A program made the translations under genes and the position numbers. Source: Candidatus Kaiserbacteria bacterium (GTDB lineage Bacteria > Patescibacteriota > Minisyncoccia > Phycocordibacterales > UBA918). From it: 64,000 bases of DNA. The notes beneath the pieces were generated by a model. It was given only the letters and a program-made list of their open reading frames with translations. It did not search any database and had not been told where the DNA came from. Of this stretch, positions 5,730 to 62,986 are shown in pieces. Each line of letters starts with the position of its first letter. Position 1 is the stretch's first letter. The stretch is taken from assembly GCA_019634005.1 (NCBI GenBank), contig JAHQWD010000003.1, positions 2,525 to 66,524 on the forward strand, in the 5' to 3' direction.

Positions 5730-5800
5730 AGCGGGGTAGAGGAGAGGTACCTCGGGAGGCTCATAACCTCCAGACCCCGGTTCGATTCCGGGCCCCGCAA
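5730..5800 (+). tRNA. tRNA-Met (CAT), initiator-like
   Basis: Folds as a cloverleaf with a CTCATAA anticodon loop, a TTCGATT T-loop and no encoded CCA. The sequence AGCGGGGTAGAGG...CCGGGCCCCGCAA resembles the E. coli initiator (CGCGGGG...CCCCCGCAACCA). Positions 1:72 are A:A, a mismatch as in bacterial initiators. Confidence 0.8.
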
Positions 5801-5807
5801 CACGTCA

Positions 5808-5843
5808 AGAAAACACCGATATACTCGGTGTTTTCTTGTTTTT
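5808..5843 (+). terminator. intrinsic terminator
   Basis: Hairpin AAGAAAACACCG-atatact-CGGTGTTTTCTT followed by a TTGTTTTT run. Confidence 0.7.
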
Positions 5844-5872
5844 GAGGCTTTGAGATGGTATTCTCTCTTCAC

Positions 5873-5946
5873 GTCGGCGTAGCTCAGTTGGTTAGAGCAC
5901 AACACTCATAAAGTTGGGGTCGGAGGTTCAAATCCTCCCGTCGACA
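5873..5946 (+). tRNA. tRNA-Met (CAT), elongator or tRNA-Ile2 (lysidine) type
   Basis: GTCGGCGTAGCTCAGTTGGTTAGAGC...CTCATAA...GGAGGTTCAAATCCTCCCGTCGACA. Anticodon CAT at 5907-5909. Pair 31:39 is A:A. Confidence 0.8.
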
Positions 5947-5953
5947 CTTTTAC

Positions 5954-5983: not shown

Positions 5984-6080
5984 TAAATAGGATATATCCA
6001 CGTACTGTTATACTACAATAGTATAAGTGCCTATATTACGTTCATTACATCAAGACTTTTTCAAAAAATGGAGCAATGAC

Positions 6081-6698
6081 ATGGCTTATGTTTTAGGGTT
6101 TTTTGCTGCAGATGGGAGTATGCTAGAGAATAATCGCGGAGCGCACTATATTGAGTTTCATATTACGGACAAAAAGATTTTAGAACAGATGAGGGAAGCT
6201 ATGGGCTCTAATCACAAGATTAAAGAGAGGAAAAGAGATGAAAAATGGAAGCCTATCTACAGACTGCAAATAGGGAGTAAAGTATTCTATGAAGATTTAC
6301 AAAAACATGGTTTTACTCAAGCAAAGAGTCATACTTTAAAATTACCCTTAGTTCCAAAGAAATATATTGCAGATTTTGTTCGTGGGTATTTTGATGGAGA
6401 TGGATGTGTTCACTTTAAACAGTATAAAGTGAGGGGTCGGAAAAAGCCAAAGTGGGTCTTCCAGACTCGTTTTACTTCAGGAAGTAAAAATTTCTTGCAG
6501 GATTTACACAATCTATTAAAAGATTACGGTGTAGCAAGAGGTTTCATTACGAAGAAAAATAGGGGGCACGAACTTGTGTTCAGTCATCGCGATGGTGTTG
6601 CATTATATCGATTAATGTATAATAATACCCCTCGTATTTATTTAAAACGTAAATACAACATCTTCAGAAAAGCAATGAAGACGCTTTATGGAGAATAA
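6081..6698 (+). CDS. LAGLIDADG-family homing endonuclease (double-motif, free-standing)
   Basis: Two LAGLIDADG motifs are present: MAYVLGFFAADGSM and ADFVRGYFDGDGCVHF. The RBS tggag lies 10 nt upstream of ATG 6081. The stop is 2 nt before tRNA-Asp exon 1. AT-rich compared with the flanking sequence. Confidence 0.85.
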   Translation: MAYVLGFFAADGSMLENNRGAHYIEFHITDKKILEQMREAMGSNHKIKERKRDEKWKPIYRLQIGSKVFYEDLQKHGFTQAKSHTLKLPLVPKKYIADFVRGYFDGDGCVHFKQYKVRGRKKPKWVFQTRFTSGSKNFLQDLHNLLKDYGVARGFITKKNRGHELVFSHRDGVALYRLMYNNTPRIYLKRKYNIFRKAMKTLYGE

Positions 6699-6700
6699 CT

Positions 6701-8872: not shown

Positions 8873-9133
8873 ATGAAGAAAAAGAAGGATAAAAAAGTGG
8901 AAGTGACCATGCGGGAGTTTCTTCGTAATCCTGGGAAAATGGGCGGCATGGTTCGTGATGGTACTGCTATTGAAGTGACCAAAAATGGTGCACCGTTTTT
9001 TACGGCTGTGCCTGCCTTTGAGAAAAAAGGGATTACAGGGAAAGACATCGTTCGATTGATAAAACCAAAAAAGAGTGGTTTGCATTCTCCCAATATCAGT
9101 ACACGTGTAGATGAAATGCTCTATGGAAAATGA
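8873..9133 (+). CDS. type II antitoxin (Phd/YefM-like, VapB-type)
   Basis: Small protein (MREFLRNPGKM...) overlapping the downstream PIN toxin. An imperfect palindrome GTGTTTGACAcTGTCAGACAC at 8836-8856 lies in its promoter. The start could alternatively be 8909. Confidence 0.65.
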   Translation: MKKKKDKKVEVTMREFLRNPGKMGGMVRDGTAIEVTKNGAPFFTAVPAFEKKGITGKDIVRLIKPKKSGLHSPNISTRVDEMLYGK

Positions 9134-9500
9134 AATTATACTCGATTCTTGTGTGTGGCTATCGTTCTTTTCTCCTGAAGATCGCAACCATAAGCAGGCG
9201 GTGGAGATACTGGAGGAGATAGAAGAACACATTGTTGTACCTGAGATTGTGTTTGGGGAGGTTGTGACAATACTTCGTTTGAGAAAAAAAGAGGACGAGG
9301 TGAAACAGTTTTATGAATTGTGTATGGGCGCATCGATGTTCTTACCTACGGGGCGTCTCTTGTGGAGGACTGCTGTTCGGTACCCACATGCCCCTAAGAA
9401 ACTATCCTTTGTTGACGCTGCACTGTATATACTTTCCAAAGAGTATGAGGTTGTGACCTTTGATAAGGTGCTCAAAAAGGCTATTGAAATGAGGAGTTAA
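9111..9500 (+). CDS. PIN-domain toxin (VapC-like)
   Basis: PIN acidic residues are in the right context (IILDSCVWLSFF, FGEVV, SFVDAALYILSKEYEVVTFDK). Overlaps the antitoxin. An alternative start is 9123. Confidence 0.75.
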   Translation: MKCSMENEIILDSCVWLSFFSPEDRNHKQAVEILEEIEEHIVVPEIVFGEVVTILRLRKKEDEVKQFYELCMGASMFLPTGRLLWRTAVRYPHAPKKLSFVDAALYILSKEYEVVTFDKVLKKAIEMRS

Positions 9501-22173: not shown

Positions 22174-22770
22174 ATGAAACAGCAGATTCTTATTATCCAT
22201 GGAGGGGATAGTTATATCTCAGAAGAGGAATATCACAAAGCATTACAAAACCGACAACTCAAGTTGGAGTGGTTTCGAGATGGTTCTAGTTGGAAAAAGT
22301 CACTGCAGGATGTATTAGGTAAGGAATATGATGTTCTAACACCGTATTTTCCACTTCGTGAAAATGCGCGCTATGAGGAGTGGAAGTTGGTGTTTGAAAA
22401 ACTGATGAAGATTGTTGATGAAGGAGTGATGATTATTGGACATTCGCTCGGCGGAATGTTTATTGCAAAATATCTTTCAGAAAATACAGCGTCCAAAAAA
22501 ATCAATGCCGTTTTCATAGTTGCTGCTCCATATGCTATGAATCCGCCGTGGTCACCTGAATTTGACGTGCCCGAATCCCTTGCAACTTTTGAACAGCAAG
22601 TTCCTCATATTTTCCTGTATCAAAGTAAAGATGATCCGCTCGTCTCTGTGGAAGAAGTCTACAAATTTGAGAGAGCAGTACCATCTGCAGAAGTGCGTAT
22701 CTTTGAGGATAGAGGACATTTCCTTGGGGATTCTTTCCCAGAGATAGTAGACGATATTACATCTCTATGA
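22174..22770 (+). CDS. alpha/beta hydrolase (RBBP9/YdeN-like serine hydrolase)
   Basis: GHSLGG nucleophile elbow. ~198 aa, matching the size and pattern of the YdeN family. Confidence 0.65.
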   Translation: MKQQILIIHGGDSYISEEEYHKALQNRQLKLEWFRDGSSWKKSLQDVLGKEYDVLTPYFPLRENARYEEWKLVFEKLMKIVDEGVMIIGHSLGGMFIAKYLSENTASKKINAVFIVAAPYAMNPPWSPEFDVPESLATFEQQVPHIFLYQSKDDPLVSVEEVYKFERAVPSAEVRIFEDRGHFLGDSFPEIVDDITSL

Positions 22771-37056: not shown

Positions 37057-37509
37057 TTATTTTTTCAGTTCCTCCACCTTTGCAAGTAGGTCTTCTACTT
37101 TCTGTGAGAGTTGTGCGATCGCTTCTCGATCTTTCTCTTCCTCAATGTCATCCTCCTGCATTTCTTCGTCAATCTCTTCAATATCTTCCTGGATCTCATC
37201 AATGTCTTCCTCTACCTCTCGAAGGCTAGCGGTGTTCTGGTTCACCGACATTTGAATAAAGATAGCAAGGTAGATTGCTTCAAGTGAGACGACGGTGGTC
37301 AGTACCAAAAGGATCCGATTCCAGGAAAAGATATCAAAGATACCGAAGAGGAAGGAGAAGATGAAGATAAGGGTATGAATCATCAAGGAAGATGGAGAGC
37401 CAATCCACTCGATAATGGTTTCGATTGAGGGTATAAGCCGTCTTTGTTTGCGTTTCTTCATCCTGTGGAGTATAGCATAAGAAAAGGCCAGCACCGTGGT
37501 GCTGACCAA
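37057..37509 (-). CDS. hypothetical membrane protein with acidic coiled-coil C-terminus
   Basis: Two TM helices, then DIDEIQEDIEEIDEEMQEDDIEEEKD. Confidence 0.5.
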   Translation of the reverse strand: MVSTTVLAFSYAILHRMKKRKQRRLIPSIETIIEWIGSPSSLMIHTLIFIFSFLFGIFDIFSWNRILLVLTTVVSLEAIYLAIFIQMSVNQNTASLREVEEDIDEIQEDIEEIDEEMQEDDIEEEKDREAIAQLSQKVEDLLAKVEELKK

Positions 37510-37518
37510 CTTCCTTTC

Positions 37519-38550
37519 TCATACATGGAGCATGCGACGAGATTGAAGGAGAGGTATGTCTATGGGTATGTACGGATTCATACAAGATATTGTGGTCTCC
37601 TGCAATGTAAACTCTTTTCTTCCCGACAGAGCTGCCCAGATAAGTGCGTTCTGCACCCTGGAGACATCAAAGCGTTCGACAAGCTGCTCGGGTGTTTCCA
37701 AACCCCACACAGACTTGAAGTGCACTTTTGGTAAGCAATGCACTGAGTGCGGACCAGGTATTCCAATGAGTCTCGAAAAAGCAAGAAGAAGACAGGTTTG
37801 ACGAACCACCGATGCGCCGGTAACCAGGTGTCGGATAGGTGCTTCTTCCTGATATGCTTTCCAAAGGTATGGCCACCAGAGAAAGTCATTATCAAGCCAC
37901 CAGGATCGTCCTTCTAGGCGTACAGTAACTATCCTACGTGTCTTCCGTGAGATTAAGAGTTGCACACCTTCAAGTCTATCTAATTCCGCTCTCATTTCCG
38001 AAGCTGCCCATGACGGGTGCGTTTCAGGTAATGTAAGAGAAGGTAGTGGTGCGGTAACAAGAGCCTCTTCATCTGATGATGTGACGGGAGAATTACAGCA
38101 TGCTGCAATTTCCCCTTTAAGAAGAGTCTTCCGTGTGCCACGAAGTACAACTCCAGATACATACTCAACGTTTCCGCACGCACATCGCATGATCTGGCGA
38201 CGTTCCTTTTTAATGAGACCTTGATCAAAGAGTGTTTGCACAACCTCCTGTATAACATCCTGTGTCATTACAGAGTCGAGCCACCAAAAGGTTGGAGAAA
38301 TTCCGAGAAGGCCTACTCGATTCTGTAGGACAGGCAGCATTCTTGGTTCACCAAGTTTGCCGTGCAGATTGATTCCGAATAACGTTTCTGTGGCACTTGT
38401 GCGCGCAAGTCTGTCTGCATATGCAAACAAACTATAGAAACCCAGTTTGTGTGAGTGCATCGGGCTAACCGGCAATACACCGACAAAATCTTGATTACAC
38501 ATTACAATCTCCCTATGAAAGTGATTCCACGCCAATCCTGCCACATACAT
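37519..38550 (-). CDS. class I aminoacyl-tRNA synthetase-like catalytic-core paralog (MetRS-like, degenerate motifs); function unknown
   Basis: LPVSPMHSHKLGF lies where the HIGH motif would be. A Cys knuckle RCACGN...AACCNSP is present. KVHFKSVWGLETPEQLVERFDVSRVQNALIWAAL resembles MetRS [28 protein letters not shown]. Only 343 aa, with no anticodon-binding domain. Confidence 0.45.
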   Translation of the reverse strand: MYVAGLAWNHFHREIVMCNQDFVGVLPVSPMHSHKLGFYSLFAYADRLARTSATETLFGINLHGKLGEPRMLPVLQNRVGLLGISPTFWWLDSVMTQDVIQEVVQTLFDQGLIKKERRQIMRCACGNVEYVSGVVLRGTRKTLLKGEIAACCNSPVTSSDEEALVTAPLPSLTLPETHPSWAASEMRAELDRLEGVQLLISRKTRRIVTVRLEGRSWWLDNDFLWWPYLWKAYQEEAPIRHLVTGASVVRQTCLLLAFSRLIGIPGPHSVHCLPKVHFKSVWGLETPEQLVERFDVSRVQNALIWAALSGRKEFTLQETTISCMNPYIPIDIPLLQSRRMLHV

Positions 38551-38574: not shown

Positions 38575-40062
38575 CTATGTCTCTGGATTAAGGATCGAAT
38601 AGAGTGCTGGGAATATCCTCGAGGTCTTTTTATGAAAGGAGAGATGCTCTGTGGGGAGTGGTGTTACGGATATCTGAGCCTGCCTACATATCTGTTGAAG
38701 AGTCTCTATGGGTATTTGCCGATCATTCTCCCCGGCAAGGATGTGATATTTGTCGGCACGAAAGGAAGAGTGTTGCATAACTGCTTCTAGTGAAAGTATC
38801 TCATCGTTTACGAGTCGACTCCAATCTGCATCAGTGAATCGGTACGCTACTCCAAACGAACGCTGCATAAACGATTTCAGTGTATCAATATCTGGAACCT
38901 GACTCATTGCGTATACAGGAGATAACGCAATGACACGATCAATTGCATTGTTGACACCAGCATAGAGTGCGACGAGTCCTCCAAAGCTGGCACCAAGAAC
39001 CGTGATATGTTCTGTATGAACAGTCTGCCCGTCTACGTTGATACCTCCTTGTATAAGCTCTGCAAGTTCCTGAATATCTTCAGCGGGATTGTGGTCAAGA
39101 AATACTCCTTCTGATTCCCAGGTCCCTTTTAGTCGAGGGAAGAATACAGCGTACCCCCAAGAGGCAAGGAGGTTGAGAAAGGTGTCGAGTACCGGCGTTC
39201 GAGGAAGGCCGTCTATGACAATGATGGCTTTTGAAAATTTCTCTGGAAGTATGTATTCGGTGATCATACCTCCTATAAAAGTGCGTGCGGGACGTTGTAT
39301 TGTACGAGGCGTGAGCATGTATGAAGTCTTGAGTGCAAGTTGGTAGAGAGTCTCATAGAAGTCAATATAGGTCTCAGCAGAGTCTACTGCGTCTTCTTTT
39401 TCAAGCCACGTCCATTGTGTGTCAGAAAATACGTGAGGAAATCGTACGCGGAATTTCTCTTCAGCCTCTTGTGTGTTGCTACATGGACCGAAGAATAGCA
39501 TTAAATCCATTAAGACACGGCGGACATGTTTCTGATGATACTGGGGATTTTTATCTCGCACATGTCGACCAATCCCCATAGCTTCGCGTCTATACTGAAA
39601 AATATAACGCTGAATTCTATTAAGTAAGCTAGTAGTTACCAACTGCTCTGAAGGACGGAACTCGGTGAAGGGATTTTCTCCATGGAGCGTTATCGCGTCT
39701 GCAAGCACATATGAGAAAAATGCACCGTGTGCGTCAAGCGAGAAGAGATCAGCTGAACCAATTTCATCACTGTAGAACAGTTGGAGGTCAAGTTCATGTT
39801 CAGAAAATATCTCTACAACCTCTCTCAATAGCCTAAGGTCTTCTGCTACATTTTGCTTCTCCTTCTTTATTACCAGTATGTCAAGATCCCAAAAGGAGTC
39901 ACTATTTAAAGAACTTCCATATAGAAGGATAGATAGATGTTCTTTCCGAAACATACGTACAATCTCCCCGGCAATGGTCTTTGCAATCATTGGTGTTGTC
40001 GCAACTGTATTCATGAGTCTCAGTATAACAAATAGTAACTTTCTTAGGGTTAAGTGTAGCAC
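38575..40062 (-). CDS. fusion protein: N-terminal minimal nucleotidyltransferase (pol-beta-like NTase) domain plus C-terminal alpha/beta hydrolase
   Basis: NTase motif LLYGSSLNSDSFWDLDILVI (GS...DxD). C-terminal nucleophile elbow GASFGG followed by a catalytic-His region. The start could be 40014. Confidence 0.6.
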   Translation of the reverse strand: MLHLTLRKLLFVILRLMNTVATTPMIAKTIAGEIVRMFRKEHLSILLYGSSLNSDSFWDLDILVIKKEKQNVAEDLRLLREVVEIFSEHELDLQLFYSDEIGSADLFSLDAHGAFFSYVLADAITLHGENPFTEFRPSEQLVTTSLLNRIQRYIFQYRREAMGIGRHVRDKNPQYHQKHVRRVLMDLMLFFGPCSNTQEAEEKFRVRFPHVFSDTQWTWLEKEDAVDSAETYIDFYETLYQLALKTSYMLTPRTIQRPARTFIGGMITEYILPEKFSKAIIVIDGLPRTPVLDTFLNLLASWGYAVFFPRLKGTWESEGVFLDHNPAEDIQELAELIQGGINVDGQTVHTEHITVLGASFGGLVALYAGVNNAIDRVIALSPVYAMSQVPDIDTLKSFMQRSFGVAYRFTDADWSRLVNDEILSLEAVMQHSSFRADKYHILAGENDRQIPIETLQQICRQAQISVTPLPTEHLSFHKKTSRIFPALYSILNPET

Positions 40063-42109: not shown

Positions 42110-42140
42110 AGAAAAAACCTCCGAAAGGAGGTTTTTTCTT
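42110..42140. terminator. bidirectional intrinsic terminator
   Basis: AAAAAACCTCCGAAAGGAGGTTTTTTC. Confidence 0.75.
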
Positions 42141-42357
42141 ATTTCACAAAGTAATCGATTGGTTTCTTGTAGAGCTTCGCGAGATCAGACATTTCAATGA
42201 GATCTACATTTCGTTCCCCGCGCTCAATCTTTGAAACGTATGACTGTGGTTTCTTGAGCTTATCTCCTACAGTCTCTTGGGTGAGTCCAGCATCCAGCCG
42301 TGCTGCACGCAGCCTTTTAATGAGTTTTTGATATCGAGGTTTATATTTCTTCGACAT
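42139..42357 (-). CDS. XRE-family HTH transcriptional regulator
   Basis: LTQETVGDKLKKPQSYVSKIERGER. Confidence 0.75.
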   Translation of the reverse strand: MSKKYKPRYQKLIKRLRAARLDAGLTQETVGDKLKKPQSYVSKIERGERNVDLIEMSDLAKLYKKPIDYFVK

Positions 42358-42449: not shown

Positions 42450-43070
42450 ATGGATTCTGAGCAGAAGAAACTTGTAGTCATTGTCCCTGGATCAAGGACA
42501 AAGGAAGTGAGGATCCCTCTTATAAGGATGCTTATGCAGAGTTTTTACAGCCATTTCGGTGTGGATGAGACGGGAGATGAGTGGGTACAAGCACTGCATG
42601 AGCATCTTGAAGATGAGACAACCGATGTTGTGATATTCACTTGGTCTGGAGGCATTTCCCCGATCGCAACAGGTCGTGCTGCAAAGAGACTACGCACGTT
42701 TCTTGAAGAACAGAAAGACAGAGAGATTATCCTTTTTACAAAGAGTCTTGGTGGCGTTGTTGCAGAGAAAGCCCTTAAGGATGGTGGCATTCATGTTCTG
42801 AAACTGATACAAGTTGCGACACCACACTTCCGCTTTCGAAGAAAGTTAGAAAATACAGAGGTTATAAACATATATTCTCCAGAGGACACCTATCACACAC
42901 TCGCACACAAGGTGCTTTTTCTTGGTATGGGAACTTTTGATGTGCCCCATGCCCAGAATATTGCGCTCTCGGGAATAATGCATAGCGGCTTCAACTATGA
43001 TAACGAGATTGTGTACAAGGGTAAGACACAGTCTCTTTTTGATCTCTATAAAGAGATAGTAGACAACTGA
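42450..43070 (+). CDS. putative alpha/beta-fold hydrolase-like protein
   Basis: FTKSLGG degenerate nucleophile elbow. 206 aa. Confidence 0.4.
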   Translation: MDSEQKKLVVIVPGSRTKEVRIPLIRMLMQSFYSHFGVDETGDEWVQALHEHLEDETTDVVIFTWSGGISPIATGRAAKRLRTFLEEQKDREIILFTKSLGGVVAEKALKDGGIHVLKLIQVATPHFRFRRKLENTEVINIYSPEDTYHTLAHKVLFLGMGTFDVPHAQNIALSGIMHSGFNYDNEIVYKGKTQSLFDLYKEIVDN

Positions 43071-60790: not shown

Positions 60791-62986
60791 TTAACCTGGC
60801 CACTTCGCAACCATAAGCATCTCACTGTCTTTCTCTGGAAGATGCTGCCAAATGGTCTCGGTCACAAATGGCATAAAGGGATGAAGTATCTTCAGTGACG
60901 TCGTAAGACACTCATATAGCACGTACTGTCGTGCATTCTTTGCGTCAGTATCTTCTCCATTGAGAATAGGTTTAGACTCCTCGAGAATCTTGTCTGCAAG
61001 TTCATGCCATACATAGTGGTAGGCCTTCTCCGCGGCGAGGTAGAGTTGGAACTTGTCTATATCACCAGATACCTCCCGAACCATCGTCTGTAGATTATCG
61101 AGGATCTCCTGGTCTTCTGCTCCAAGTGTATCTGGTTTTTGAGGCACTTCCTCGATGTTGGTCAGAATAAATCTCGTGATATTCCACAGTTTGTTTGCAA
61201 AGTGTTTATATCCCTTTACCTTACTCTCGTCAAAACGAAGATCATTTCCGATAGCAGTTCCCACAAGGAGTCCCATACGGAGTGCATCTGCACCGTATTT
61301 CTCAATCATCTCAATAGGATCAATACCATTGTTGAGGGATTTACTAAACTTTCTACCAGACTTGTCTCGCACCAGTCCATGGATCATAACTGTCTTAAAC
61401 GGTACCTGTCCGAGGTGAAATGCACTCATGAGAATCATGCGAGACACCCAGAGCGGAAGAATCTCGTACGCAGGGGACATGAAGGCTGTCGGATGAAATG
61501 TCTTGAGGTCTGCAGTTTCTTCTGGCCATCCAAGTGTAGAGAATGTCCAAAGAGCGGAAGAGAACCATGTATCGAGCACATCCTCTTCTTGTGTCCATCC
61601 TTCTCCTTCAGGTGTGGTGACACCACAGTGTATCTCGTCACCCTTATACCACACAGGGATACGGTGTCCGAACCAGATCTGTCGAGAAATACACCAGTCT
61701 CGGAGATTATCAATCCAATGGAAGTATGTTTTACGGAAACGTTCTTGTGGCATTGAGACCGACTCGCTCTCAACACTTGCACGCATGACTTCTACAAGAG
61801 TCGCCTCAGAACCAGATGCGATACCAGGGATCTCAGAGTGCTCTATGGTAAACGGTTTATTGACCGCAACCCACCACTGTAATTTTGGAAGTGGTTCAAT
61901 TACAGCACCAGTACGCTCTGATGTAGAGATATTCTGATCCACCTCCTCCTCTTTCTCAAGAAGATTCTCTTCCTTGAGCCACGTAACGACCGCCTCACGT
62001 GCAGCGTCCACTTTAAGATTCTCAAGACGGCCAGAGACCATCATTTTGGCATACTCATTGATAACCTGTGGGCGGGGGAGATCATTTTTCTCTGCAATTT
62101 CCCAATCTATGTGGCTGTGTGCAGGCGTAACACCAAGCGCTCCAGTTCCAAACTCCATATCAACACCATCATCGGCAACAACGGTAATGTGGAGGGGTAC
62201 ATCACAGAAGGTAAGATCGTATTCTTTTCCGATGAATTCTTGGTATCGTGTGTCGTCAGGATGGACGGCAACAGCAACATCACCCACTTTCGTCTCAGGA
62301 CGAGTGGTGGAGATGGCGATGGGGAAGTCTGAAGAATATTTAAATGTGTAGAGTACTCCTTTACGCTCTTCGTGCACAACCTCGTCATCAGAGATGGTCG
62401 TCTGCCCTTTTGGATCCCAGTTTACAATGCGATTGCCTCGATAGATAAGTCCTGCATCATACATTCTCTTAAACGCAGTACTTACCGCCAAGGTTCGTTT
62501 CTCATCAAGGGTGTACGCGTAGCGGCTCCAATCCAATGATGCTCCAACGCGTCTCACTTGGCTCAGGATAGTATCCTCACTATTCTTCGCAAACTCTGAT
62601 ACACGGCGTACTAACTCCTCTCGTCCGAGATCATGTCGTGTTTTATTCTCTTCTTTACGAATGTTTTTCTCTACTCGTGCCTGGGTTGCGATAGCGGCAG
62701 AGTCTGTCCCAGGTACCCAGAGGGTCTTTTTGCCATTCATGCGGTGGTAACGAACAAATGCATCTTGGAGAGAATCCTCGTAGGCGTGTCCAATGTGGAG
62801 TACCCCTGTTACGTTTGGGGGTGGTAATACGACAGAAAATGTCTCCGCATCAGCATCAGTAACACCTTTTTCTACACAGGTATCTGGATTAAAATAGCCG
62901 CTCTTTTCCCAAAGGGCGTATACGTCTTTCTCGTTTGCTTCGGAATCGTATGGTGAAAGGAATATGTCAGGAATCTGGTCACTCAT
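60791..62986 (-). CDS. valS: valyl-tRNA synthetase (short form, 731 aa)
   Basis: PPPNVTGVLHIGHA (HIGH motif), WVPGTDSAAIATQ and KFSKS (KMSKS motif). Lacks the long C-terminal coiled coil of canonical ValRS. Confidence 0.85.
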   Translation of the reverse strand: MSDQIPDIFLSPYDSEANEKDVYALWEKSGYFNPDTCVEKGVTDADAETFSVVLPPPNVTGVLHIGHAYEDSLQDAFVRYHRMNGKKTLWVPGTDSAAIATQARVEKNIRKEENKTRHDLGREELVRRVSEFAKNSEDTILSQVRRVGASLDWSRYAYTLDEKRTLAVSTAFKRMYDAGLIYRGNRIVNWDPKGQTTISDDEVVHEERKGVLYTFKYSSDFPIAISTTRPETKVGDVAVAVHPDDTRYQEFIGKEYDLTFCDVPLHITVVADDGVDMEFGTGALGVTPAHSHIDWEIAEKNDLPRPQVINEYAKMMVSGRLENLKVDAAREAVVTWLKEENLLEKEEEVDQNISTSERTGAVIEPLPKLQWWVAVNKPFTIEHSEIPGIASGSEATLVEVMRASVESESVSMPQERFRKTYFHWIDNLRDWCISRQIWFGHRIPVWYKGDEIHCGVTTPEGEGWTQEEDVLDTWFSSALWTFSTLGWPEETADLKTFHPTAFMSPAYEILPLWVSRMILMSAFHLGQVPFKTVMIHGLVRDKSGRKFSKSLNNGIDPIEMIEKYGADALRMGLLVGTAIGNDLRFDESKVKGYKHFANKLWNITRFILTNIEEVPQKPDTLGAEDQEILDNLQTMVREVSGDIDKFQLYLAAEKAYHYVWHELADKILEESKPILNGEDTDAKNARQYVLYECLTTSLKILHPFMPFVTETIWQHLPEKDSEMLMVAKWPG

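Follow-up and report, generated by a model that had tools for sequence, protein, structure and literature searches.

A nucleotidyltransferase–alpha/beta-hydrolase fusion protein from a Candidatus Kaiserbacteria bacterium is coupled in genomes to a methionyl-tRNA synthetase-like core

Introduction

The 64,000-nucleotide stretch of DNA analyzed here (termed the window; positions 2,525 to 66,524 of the forward strand of contig JAHQWD010000003.1, assembly GCA_019634005.1) comes from a Candidatus Kaiserbacteria bacterium. Its reverse strand carries a gene whose product joins an N-terminal nucleotidyltransferase (NTase) to a C-terminal alpha/beta hydrolase, followed by a gene for a protein resembling an aminoacyl-tRNA synthetase (aaRS), hereafter the partner. 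The locus raises the question of whether these proteins belong together and, if so, what they might do. A preliminary description made from the sequence had proposed a two-gene system. We found instead three modules, namely an NTase with its helical domain, a hydrolase, and a core resembling methionyl-tRNA synthetase (MetRS), which are variously fused or split among genomes, and we state with high confidence that they form a recurrent, functionally tied unit.

Public records label the fusion protein "hypothetical" or "alpha/beta hydrolase", and this annotation can now be corrected. The partner represents a sizeable class I synthetase-derived family that is invisible to sequence searches and that has kept the MetRS core while losing every hallmark of aminoacylation. 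The trio provides a concrete, testable unit in the tiny-genome lineages of the Candidate Phyla Radiation (CPR) and DPANN, many of which are thought to be symbionts and whose metabolism is largely deduced from annotation. Its function could be a salvage or modification pathway on which these organisms depend, or a new reuse of synthetase scaffolds.

Gene model and domain architecture of the fusion protein

The mechanical open reading frame (ORF) of the fusion gene spans 38575..40062 on the reverse strand and encodes 495 amino acids (aa) from an upstream GTG. A start at ATG 40014 is favored by a 100%-identical NCBI protein of 479 aa (P0001, from Candidatus Kaiserbacteria and labeled "hypothetical protein") and by the N-termini of homologs, which align to M17 of the 495-aa ORF. 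Residue numbers of the fusion protein refer throughout to the 479-aa version, with the following features.

38575..40014, reverse strand: fusion gene, 479 aa plus stop, starting with ATG at 40014
39730..40014, reverse strand: NTase core of the pol-beta superfamily, residues 1-95 (motifs, PDB profile matches, model)
39913-39918, reverse strand: G33-S34 loop of the NTase, within L-Y-G33-S34 (hG[GS] motif)
39880-39888, reverse strand: D43-L-D45 of the NTase (D-x-D motif)
39787-39789, reverse strand: D76, third acidic residue of the NTase (conservation, strand 3 of the model)
39301..39729, reverse strand: helical domain with linker, residues 96-238 (conservation, secondary structure)
38578..39300, reverse strand: alpha/beta-hydrolase domain, residues 239-479, about 240 aa (Pfam, PDB profile, Foldseek)
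39112-39126, reverse strand: G-T-W-E-S signature of the hydrolase (conservation)
38977-38994, reverse strand: nucleophile elbow GASFGG, G341-A-S343-F-G345-G, with S343 at 38986-38988 (G-x-S-x-G motif)
38839-38847, reverse strand: A-Y-R signature of the hydrolase (conservation)
38722-38724, reverse strand: D431 of the hydrolase triad (conservation)
38644-38646, reverse strand: H457 of the hydrolase triad (conservation)

The single polypeptide thus comprises three modules: a pol-beta NTase core, a family-specific helical domain, and an alpha/beta hydrolase with a Ser-Asp-His triad. Its AlphaFold model was confident across all three (predicted local distance difference test, pLDDT, 90.7; predicted template modeling score, pTM, 0.87). 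The preliminary description had expected such a model to confirm two domains; both were recovered confidently, but the domains number three rather than two. The protein is acidic, with an isoelectric point (pI) of 5.4.

A search of 5.8 billion proteins returned 31 relatives of the fusion protein, and alignment A1 contains 30 proteins, i.e., the window protein and 29 of these 31. Its members have 441-499 aa and share 34-53% identity with the window protein; wherever a source is named, it is a Patescibacteria/CPR assembly. A second conservation set comprised 29 related loci with module-linked copies, plus 56 stand-alone copies of the hydrolase. Domain calls required evidence at the level of the family because Pfam scores for the window protein alone were marginal. 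Polbeta matched it with an E value of 0.026 and 15.1 bits, below the cutoff of 26.9, and Abhydrolase_6 gave a borderline 26.1-26.3 bits against a cutoff of 26.3. When each family member was scanned, Polbeta matched 14 of the 30 at E ≤ 0.01 (best 4.6e-7) and Abhydrolase_6 matched 21 of the 30 (best 1.2e-9), evidence that is solid at the level of the family. Pfam, profile, conservation, and Foldseek evidence upheld the original call of an NTase–alpha/beta-hydrolase fusion as opposed to a single known lipase family.

The NTase motif string reported earlier, LYGSSLNSDSFWDLDILVI (hG[GS]...D-x-D), is present, and its G33-S34 and D43-L-D45 are conserved among homologs. Within A1 the residues D43, D45, and D76 are invariant and G33-S34 nearly so. 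Among the related loci, G33 and D45 occur in 29/29 and D43 in 28/29; position 34 is Ser in 23/29 and Pro in six divergent copies, and position 76 is Asp or Glu in 25/29. The model displays the pol-beta layout of strand 1, G-S, helix, strand 2 with the D-x-D, helix, and strand 3 with D76. A stand-alone gene for the NTase-plus-helical module at locus L044 passes the NTP_transf_2 threshold (30.1 against a cutoff of 21). In comparisons of the family profile with the PDB, the best NTase match was the minimal NTase 9xbd_E (6.6e-6), with others to kanamycin NTase (1e-3 to 1e-4), AF0614 (1ylq; 1.6e-3), and AadA (0.03). A profile of the N-terminal half alone matched only NTases in the PDB, and only across its first 55-90 residues.

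The term "minimal" NTase used in the preliminary description does not fit, since the core is followed by a conserved helical domain of about 140 aa that had been overlooked. This strongly conserved domain has five predicted helices (residues 123-234 of the model), and its key conserved residues are H96-G97, G112-x-N114-P, Y137, R142, K162, and D170. The middle region of A1 contains an invariant or nearly invariant block made up of F91-S-L-D-x-H96-G97, G112-x-N114-P115, Q135, Y137, R142, N156-P157, H160, K162, Y220-E221, and Y224. No relative of the helical domain was found by sequence in Pfam or the PDB. By analogy, it appears to occupy the position of the helical substrate-binding domain of kanamycin-NTase-type enzymes. 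A catalytic HEPN identity was considered and ruled out, as neither A1 nor alignment A4 has a conserved Rx4-6H column pair.

The hydrolase covers about 240 aa rather than the roughly 200 aa first estimated, and in the model it shows the typical alpha/beta-hydrolase pattern of strands and helices after the five helices. The GASFGG nucleophile elbow was correctly identified at the outset; S343 is found in 29/29 related loci, as is D431, and H457 is found in 26/29, the other three being alignment gaps. Conserved positions in A1 are R294, G297-x-W299-E300-S301, G341-x-S343-x-G345, Y391-R392, D431, and H457, and the Ser-Asp-His triad is also kept in the 56 stand-alone copies. Conservation thus identifies Ser343/Asp431/His457, in the order Ser, Asp, His, as the predicted catalytic triad. 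Judged from residue conservation in the linked copies, the active sites of both the NTase and the hydrolase appear catalytically intact. Peptidase_S9 and Hydrolase_4 were further Pfam families matched by this domain, and the family profile matched the PDB esterases FphH (2e-5) and Est30 (4e-4). Foldseek against the PDB retrieved alpha/beta hydrolases at probability 1.0 (E 4.6e-10), including an S9 carboxypeptidase, esterases, monoacylglycerol lipases, and the thioesterase DcsB, at 12-21% identity and with no specific subfamily standing out. The domain is of the small-carboxylesterase/S9-catalytic-domain type.

Stand-alone paralogs of the hydrolase are frequent in CPR genomes that have neither the NTase nor the partner at the locus (54 loci, e.g., L015, L018, L019, and L024, with the match near 6001-6700), and they carry the same G-T-W-E-S, A-Y-R, and triad signatures as the fusion protein. 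About 12 of these loci share clade-specific surroundings: an ABC transporter, a beta-propeller dehydrogenase-like protein, a small membrane protein, and a methyltransferase. Across all 54 neighborhoods, the synteny was clade-specific only and uninformative with regard to the substrate.

The partner has a MetRS-like fold but lacks the synthetase motifs

The partner gene lies downstream of the fusion gene, with these features.

37519..38502, reverse strand: partner gene, 327 aa (model, Foldseek, conservation)
38509..38513, reverse strand: GGGAG, a Shine-Dalgarno-like sequence 6 nt upstream of ATG 38502 (direct sequence reading)
38173-38184, reverse strand: C107-x-C109-G, first half of the four-Cys knuckle
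38095-38100, reverse strand: C135-C136, second half of the four-Cys knuckle
37876-37893, reverse strand: D204-x-D206..W209 of the partner (conservation)

The mechanical ORF of the partner is 37519..38550, starting from ATG 38550, and no comparable Shine-Dalgarno motif precedes that codon. The start at ATG 38502 is favored by the GGGAG sequence and by homolog N-termini. The two genes are co-directional, as first described, but the gap of 25 nt given for them shrinks or grows with the start codon: it is 24 nt only if ATG 38550 is used and 72 nt from the favored ATG 38502.

Searches of Pfam, NCBIfam, and PADLOC gave no match to the partner, and none was found in the PDB by phmmer or by profile. 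Its structural model was confident (pLDDT 89.1; pTM 0.88), and the top 50 Foldseek matches of that model were all MetRS, with E values down to 3.4e-14 and query-normalized template modeling scores (TMq) of 0.65-0.69 over about 350 columns. The target-normalized score (TMt) was about 0.45 against MetRS of about 500 aa, because the anticodon-binding domain of MetRS has no counterpart in the partner. An exhaustive HMMER search among 1.84 billion cluster representatives at 50% identity yielded 324 members of the partner family (median 367 aa), and conservation was computed over 141 of these 324. The four knuckle cysteines, which sit in the connective-peptide position, are 95-96% conserved; the corresponding values are 100% for D204, 92% for D206, 88% for W209, 88% for N45, 93% for S185, and 96% for P258. 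The partner also carries ISR- and W-x-D-like motifs. It is basic (pI 8.6), in line with its family (median pI 8.7, with 77% above 8).

Among the same 141 representatives, the loop equivalent to HIGH (positions 16-22) has no conserved His and keeps only G21 (78%), and the loop equivalent to KMSKS after P258 (positions 263-270) is variable and gapped, with no conserved Lys; both equivalences were assigned manually by motif order rather than by superposition. An anticodon-binding domain is absent, the partner ending at 327 aa compared to about 500 or more in MetRS. The model thus indicates that the partner is a MetRS-like catalytic core with a zinc-knuckle insertion and the class I aaRS fold. By its defining motifs it is not a synthetase, and with HIGH and KMSKS lost it is predicted to be incapable of ATP-dependent substrate activation through the class I mechanism. 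The aaRS likeness that had first been noted accordingly holds at the level of the fold, where it is specifically MetRS-like, but does not extend to HIGH, KMSKS, or the anticodon-binding domain.

The public model of the partner itself (P0032, 249 aa) begins with a Met inside the gene, so that some 78 conserved residues are missing from its N-terminus, among them N45 and the P11..G21 loop. Several members of the partner family have additional domains. P0184 (590 aa) combines the partner with a HAD phosphatase (Hydrolase_3, 1.9e-11), and in P0071 (620 aa) and P0110 (656 aa) the partner is fused to the NTase-plus-helical module. P0190 (879 aa) bears a C-terminal extension of about 550 aa with no Pfam or PDB match; an impression of a GGDEF/palm domain gained from reading its sequence was rejected, as neither database supported it.

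The three modules are linked across genomes

A scan of one genome per species identified 235 relatives of the fusion protein, and the best 80 of these 235 loci were analyzed with hidden Markov models for three modules: N (NTase plus helical domain), C (hydrolase), and P (partner). Module N was present in 26 of the 80 loci and in the window, and all 27 of these also contain C. P adjoins the N module in 24 of the 27 (window counted; E ≤ 1e-3), so the neighborhood check suggested in the preliminary description came out in favor of the pairing, which recurs widely elsewhere. The modules occur in at least six gene orders or orientations. An N-C fusion followed by P is found in the window, L001-L006, and L008; N, methyltransferase, C, P in L009 and L011; P, N, C as three separate genes in L022, L042, and L044; N, P, C in L060; and C, P, N in L029. 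P is divergent from N-C in L028 and L053 and, more weakly, in L012, L014, L017, L023, L033, and L037. Two independent types of fusion are known, N-C in about 30 proteins and P-N in P0071 and P0110. The module loci span CPR bacteria and DPANN archaea (Woesearchaeota and Nanoarchaeota), and complete genomes with the module include CP055307.1 and OZ246418.1. Baiting metagenomes with P gave seven loci, all from one subclade, with C found where the flank sufficed and N where the flank was long enough.

Apart from N, C, and P, no gene family recurs in more than three module loci, and the trio is consequently taken as the unit because no other neighbor is conserved. Chance adjacency is negligible in view of the rarity of the partner family, which accounts for 324 clusters among 1.84 billion representatives. 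That two fusion combinations, fission, and shuffling of gene order are seen across two domains of life indicates that the modules work together. Their genomic coupling is obligate.

An artefactual origin was weighed against these results. The fusion protein might be a common esterase extended at its N-terminus by degenerate sequence, or the product of an assembly error or frameshift that joined two genes, with the partner adjacent by coincidence; the Pfam scores of the window protein, at or below threshold, speak in favor of this. The same full-length N-C architecture recurs, however, in roughly 30 independent assemblies and no fewer than 10 genome loci, the catalytic residues of the NTase do not vary, the model is confident over all three domains, and the partner remains adjacent in 24 of the 27 loci despite shuffling of the order. 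We regard both an artefact and a coincidental adjacency as excluded.

Some loci depart from the common arrangement. In two archaeal loci with no detected P, a convergent gene of 389-403 aa follows the N-C fusion (L007:4182-5348 and L010:7349-8557, both reverse strand). Its product starts with YSPPIITAK..KLGHGAN and has a faint Pfam tRNA-synt_1 match at the HIGH region (E 0.08); hhalign of this gene against the partner family was not significant (probability 0.8%). This gene may encode a diverged form of the partner in which HIGH is partly retained. L056:5953-7457 is unique among the N-C fusion loci in that the 6 kb to each side of it contain no gene resembling the partner. One subclade has separate N and C genes with a gene for a SAM-dependent methyltransferase (Methyltransf_11, E 1e-13 to 1e-14) inserted between them (L009:6692-7360 and L011:857-1513; also L082, L084, and L085).

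Genomic setting

In the window, the pair sits between divergent groES/groEL genes and genes for a membrane protein, SecG, a solute-binding protein, and RNase J. This setting is one of housekeeping genes, not a mobile or defense island; no mobile-element or defense genes were found near the pair. The other neighbors in the window (groES/EL, secG, RNase J, and others) were not found in the related loci. One further feature was recorded at the end of the pair.

37486..37507, reverse strand: terminator-like hairpin directly after the partner stop, with a 9-bp stem, six G-C pairs, and a T-run (consensus scan)

The hairpin, a pattern match only, belongs to a class of sites that are no more common in this region than in shuffled sequences; it probably ends a two-gene transcription unit. 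No riboswitch, T-box, or other leader RNA from which a ligand could be deduced was found with the module, and no tRNA gene is dedicated to it: nearby tRNA genes vary by locus (His, Asn, Ser, Val, Gln) and are absent from most loci. A phage origin was considered and set aside, there being no relatives in viral contigs.

These surroundings bear on the possibility that the trio is a conflict or regulatory module akin to the pairs of minimal NTases (MNTs) and HEPN proteins, in which the NTase would AMPylate the MetRS-like protein or the hydrolase and thereby turn a toxic or regulated activity on and off, in the way that MNT antitoxins control HEPN toxins. The NTase core indeed has its best sequence matches among minimal, MNT-type proteins (9xbd_E and AF0614/1ylq), PADLOC gave a weak match to the candidate system PDC-S09 (E 0.0024), and the patchy distribution over bacteria and archaea suggests horizontal transfer. 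The PADLOC match is limited, however, to the generic N-terminus of the NTase, and the helical domain has no conserved Rx4-6H. The proteins are large enzymes with intact active sites and 35-55% identity to one another, viral copies were not found, and the surroundings are housekeeping genes (groESL, secG, RNase J) with no mobile or defense neighbors. We consider a conflict module to have only a slim chance of being correct.

The inactivation of foreign compounds is a further alternative. An ANT-like NTase fused to an esterase would modify and cleave a natural-product inhibitor, possibly one that targets an aaRS, with the MetRS-like protein serving as a binding platform or decoy. The NTase core aligns with ANT(4') and ANT(3'')(9), which share the order of NTase and then helical domain; bifunctional resistance enzymes and esterase-based inactivation are generally known, and some CPR/DPANN organisms live on other microbes that are possible antibiotic producers. 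Against this stand the confinement of the ANT similarity to about 55 residues of the universal NTase core, the lack of transporter, regulator, or mobile-element associations, and a degree of conservation in the partner (D204, 100%; four Cys, 95%) that exceeds the needs of a decoy. This explanation is very improbable.

Elsewhere in the window, two tandem tRNA-Met (CAT) genes are followed immediately by an ORF for a free-standing LAGLIDADG-type endonuclease-like protein (LAGLIDADG_3, 4.8e-19), at 5730-5947 and 6027-6698 on the forward strand. A PIN-domain ORF (3.7e-13) lies at 9111-9500 and a Ser_hydrolase PF06821 ORF (3.1e-11) at 22174-22770, both on the forward strand. An HTH_3 (XRE-type) regulator gene (42139-42357, reverse strand) is divergent from a 206-aa ORF (42450-43070, forward strand) whose product has an elbow-like KSLGG motif and no Pfam match, and which was unrelated to the fusion hydrolase by tblastn; this ORF could encode a further small, diverged serine hydrolase. 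At 60791-62986, the reverse strand encodes a class Ia synthetase of 731 aa (tRNA-synt_1, 2e-116, plus Anticodon_1). The window encodes no other canonical class I aaRS and no canonical MetRS.

Proposed function

Action on an aminoacyl-adenylate or tRNA-linked substrate, as the preliminary description proposed, is a plausible hypothesis. The partner probably binds an amino-acid-like and adenosine-like ligand, rather than charging tRNA, because the architecture of the core pocket and several invariant polar residues are kept and HIGH, KMSKS, and anticodon recognition are lost. It is possible, albeit doubtful, that the three modules form an enzyme complex that dispenses with recognition of a tRNA anticodon and processes an ester of the aminoacyl- or acyl-nucleotide type. 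In such a complex, the MetRS-like core would provide a pocket for an amino-acid-like moiety and adenosine, the NTase with its putative helical substrate-binding domain would perform a nucleotidyl-transfer step, and the serine hydrolase would act on the ester so formed, by cleavage or transfer, in release, recycling, or proofreading. The methyltransferase and HAD-phosphatase accessories of some lineages would hint at a small molecule as the substrate, one open to methylation or dephosphorylation. The closest solved relatives of the NTase beyond the minimal NTases, ANT(4') and ANT(3'')(9), modify small molecules. Also counted in favor are the lack of a dedicated tRNA gene, T-box, or riboswitch, the housekeeping setting, and the absence of viral copies. 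As an explanation of the locus as a whole, the three-module unit together with an ester-processing complex is put forward tentatively, at somewhat below an even chance.

Several considerations weigh against this ester-processing complex. The matches of the hydrolase are generic (esterases, lipases, thioesterases, and peptidase S9 at 12-21% identity), and the methyltransferase and HAD associations are limited to a few lineages. Comparison of the partner with E. coli MetRS (L081) by hhalign reached a probability of only 4%, with a single aligned stretch that corresponds to the topologically equivalent helix running into the knuckle, and the mapping of residues was manual. Pol-beta NTases normally use hydroxyl nucleophiles, and we know of no precedent for an NTase that replaces a lost adenylation step. 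Instead of acting as an enzyme, the partner might be a subunit that confers specificity or serves in regulation. In addition, its basic family and the retained zinc knuckle also fit binding of RNA or of the acceptor arm of tRNA.

The last point leads to the alternative of a system acting at the 3' end of tRNA. The MetRS-like core, through its connective-peptide zinc knuckle and stem-contact region, would dock the acceptor arm and CCA end with the anticodon left unread, the hydrolase would deacylate an aminoacyl- or peptidyl-ester, and the NTase would add or repair 3' nucleotides, for the purpose of quality control, repair, or regulation of growth. The retention of the MetRS core fold and four-Cys knuckle in a mostly basic partner family is consistent with such docking, the pol-beta fold is known to include CCA-adding enzymes and MenT-type tRNA NTases, and ester cleavage by the hydrolase suits an aminoacyl ester. 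MetRS is known, on the other hand, to depend strongly on the CAU anticodon, and the partner has no anticodon-binding domain. The tRNA genes near the module vary by locus and are missing from most loci, the sequence relatives of the NTase are of the MNT and ANT types rather than CCA-adding or MenT enzymes, and the methyltransferase and HAD additions suit small molecules at least equally well. Moreover, to our knowledge no alpha/beta hydrolase acts as a tRNA deacylase. Taken together, we judge a system of this type unlikely.

A bolder version of the ester-processing complex is a disassembled synthetase, in which a MetRS-derived core that has lost its ATP-activation motifs would rely on an unrelated pol-beta NTase for nucleotidyl transfer, with release or proofreading left to an alpha/beta hydrolase. 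The three would constitute a new route by which CPR and DPANN organisms make or recycle aminoacyl or acyl esters; this proposal is speculative and its probability is low.

Comparison with known systems

The N-terminal portion of the fusion protein resembles the aminoglycoside-modifying enzymes ANT(4')-Ia (kanamycin NTase) and AadA, ANT(3'')(9), in having a pol-beta core marked by G-S, D-x-D, and one more acidic residue, and in the order of an N-terminal NTase followed by a domain of roughly five helices. Alignment is possible, however, only over about the first 55-80 residues, and the helical domains have no detectable sequence kinship. Neither resistance enzyme has a fused hydrolase or an aaRS-like partner, and the fusion protein is not found in a resistance context. 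The minimal NTases of HEPN-MNT pairs (9xbd_E, AF0614/1ylq; PF18765/PF01909) provide the best sequence matches to the NTase core; these are proteins of about 100-130 aa that are paired with a small HEPN gene, and the fusion protein differs from them by its helical domain lacking Rx4-6H, its fused hydrolase, and its conserved neighbor with the MetRS fold. The hydrolase shares its fold, the G-x-S-x-G elbow, and the Ser-Asp-His order with carboxylesterases and lipases (FphH/Est30, monoacylglycerol lipase, and feruloyl esterases) and with S9 catalytic domains. In contrast to those esterases, its family possesses its own G-T-W-E-S and A-Y-R signatures and includes both NTase-fused and stand-alone forms. 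The partner shares with MetRS (class Ia) the predicted fold, a Cys-knuckle in the connective-peptide position, and ISR- and W-x-D-like motifs, but there is no detectable sequence similarity, and HIGH, KMSKS, and the anticodon-binding domain are missing.

A literature search retrieved no description of an NTase-hydrolase fusion coupled to a MetRS-like core; most subscription journals lay outside its reach, so this result is absence of evidence only. The domains come from known superfamilies, and the composition of this synthetase-paralog-centered system is apparently undescribed.

The closest conceptual parallels are repurposed paralogs of class I aaRSs, which include a MetRS paralog with a cupin and a lysine N6-monooxygenase, the cyclodipeptide synthases (CDPSs), and MshC (PMC2922099). 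That MetRS paralog closely resembles MetRS in sequence, and its linkage to the cupin and monooxygenase is strict (PMC2922099), whereas neither a cupin nor a lysine N6-monooxygenase is recurrent at the module loci described here. The CDPSs arose from the TyrRS/TrpRS branch, unlike the MetRS-like partner, and they too have lost the HIGH motif (PMC2922099). None of these three systems has a pol-beta NTase or an alpha/beta hydrolase as an obligate partner, and the taxa differ as well. The underlying concept is nonetheless the same, in that a class I core is used outside translation and was recognized by way of conserved gene neighborhoods (PMC2922099).

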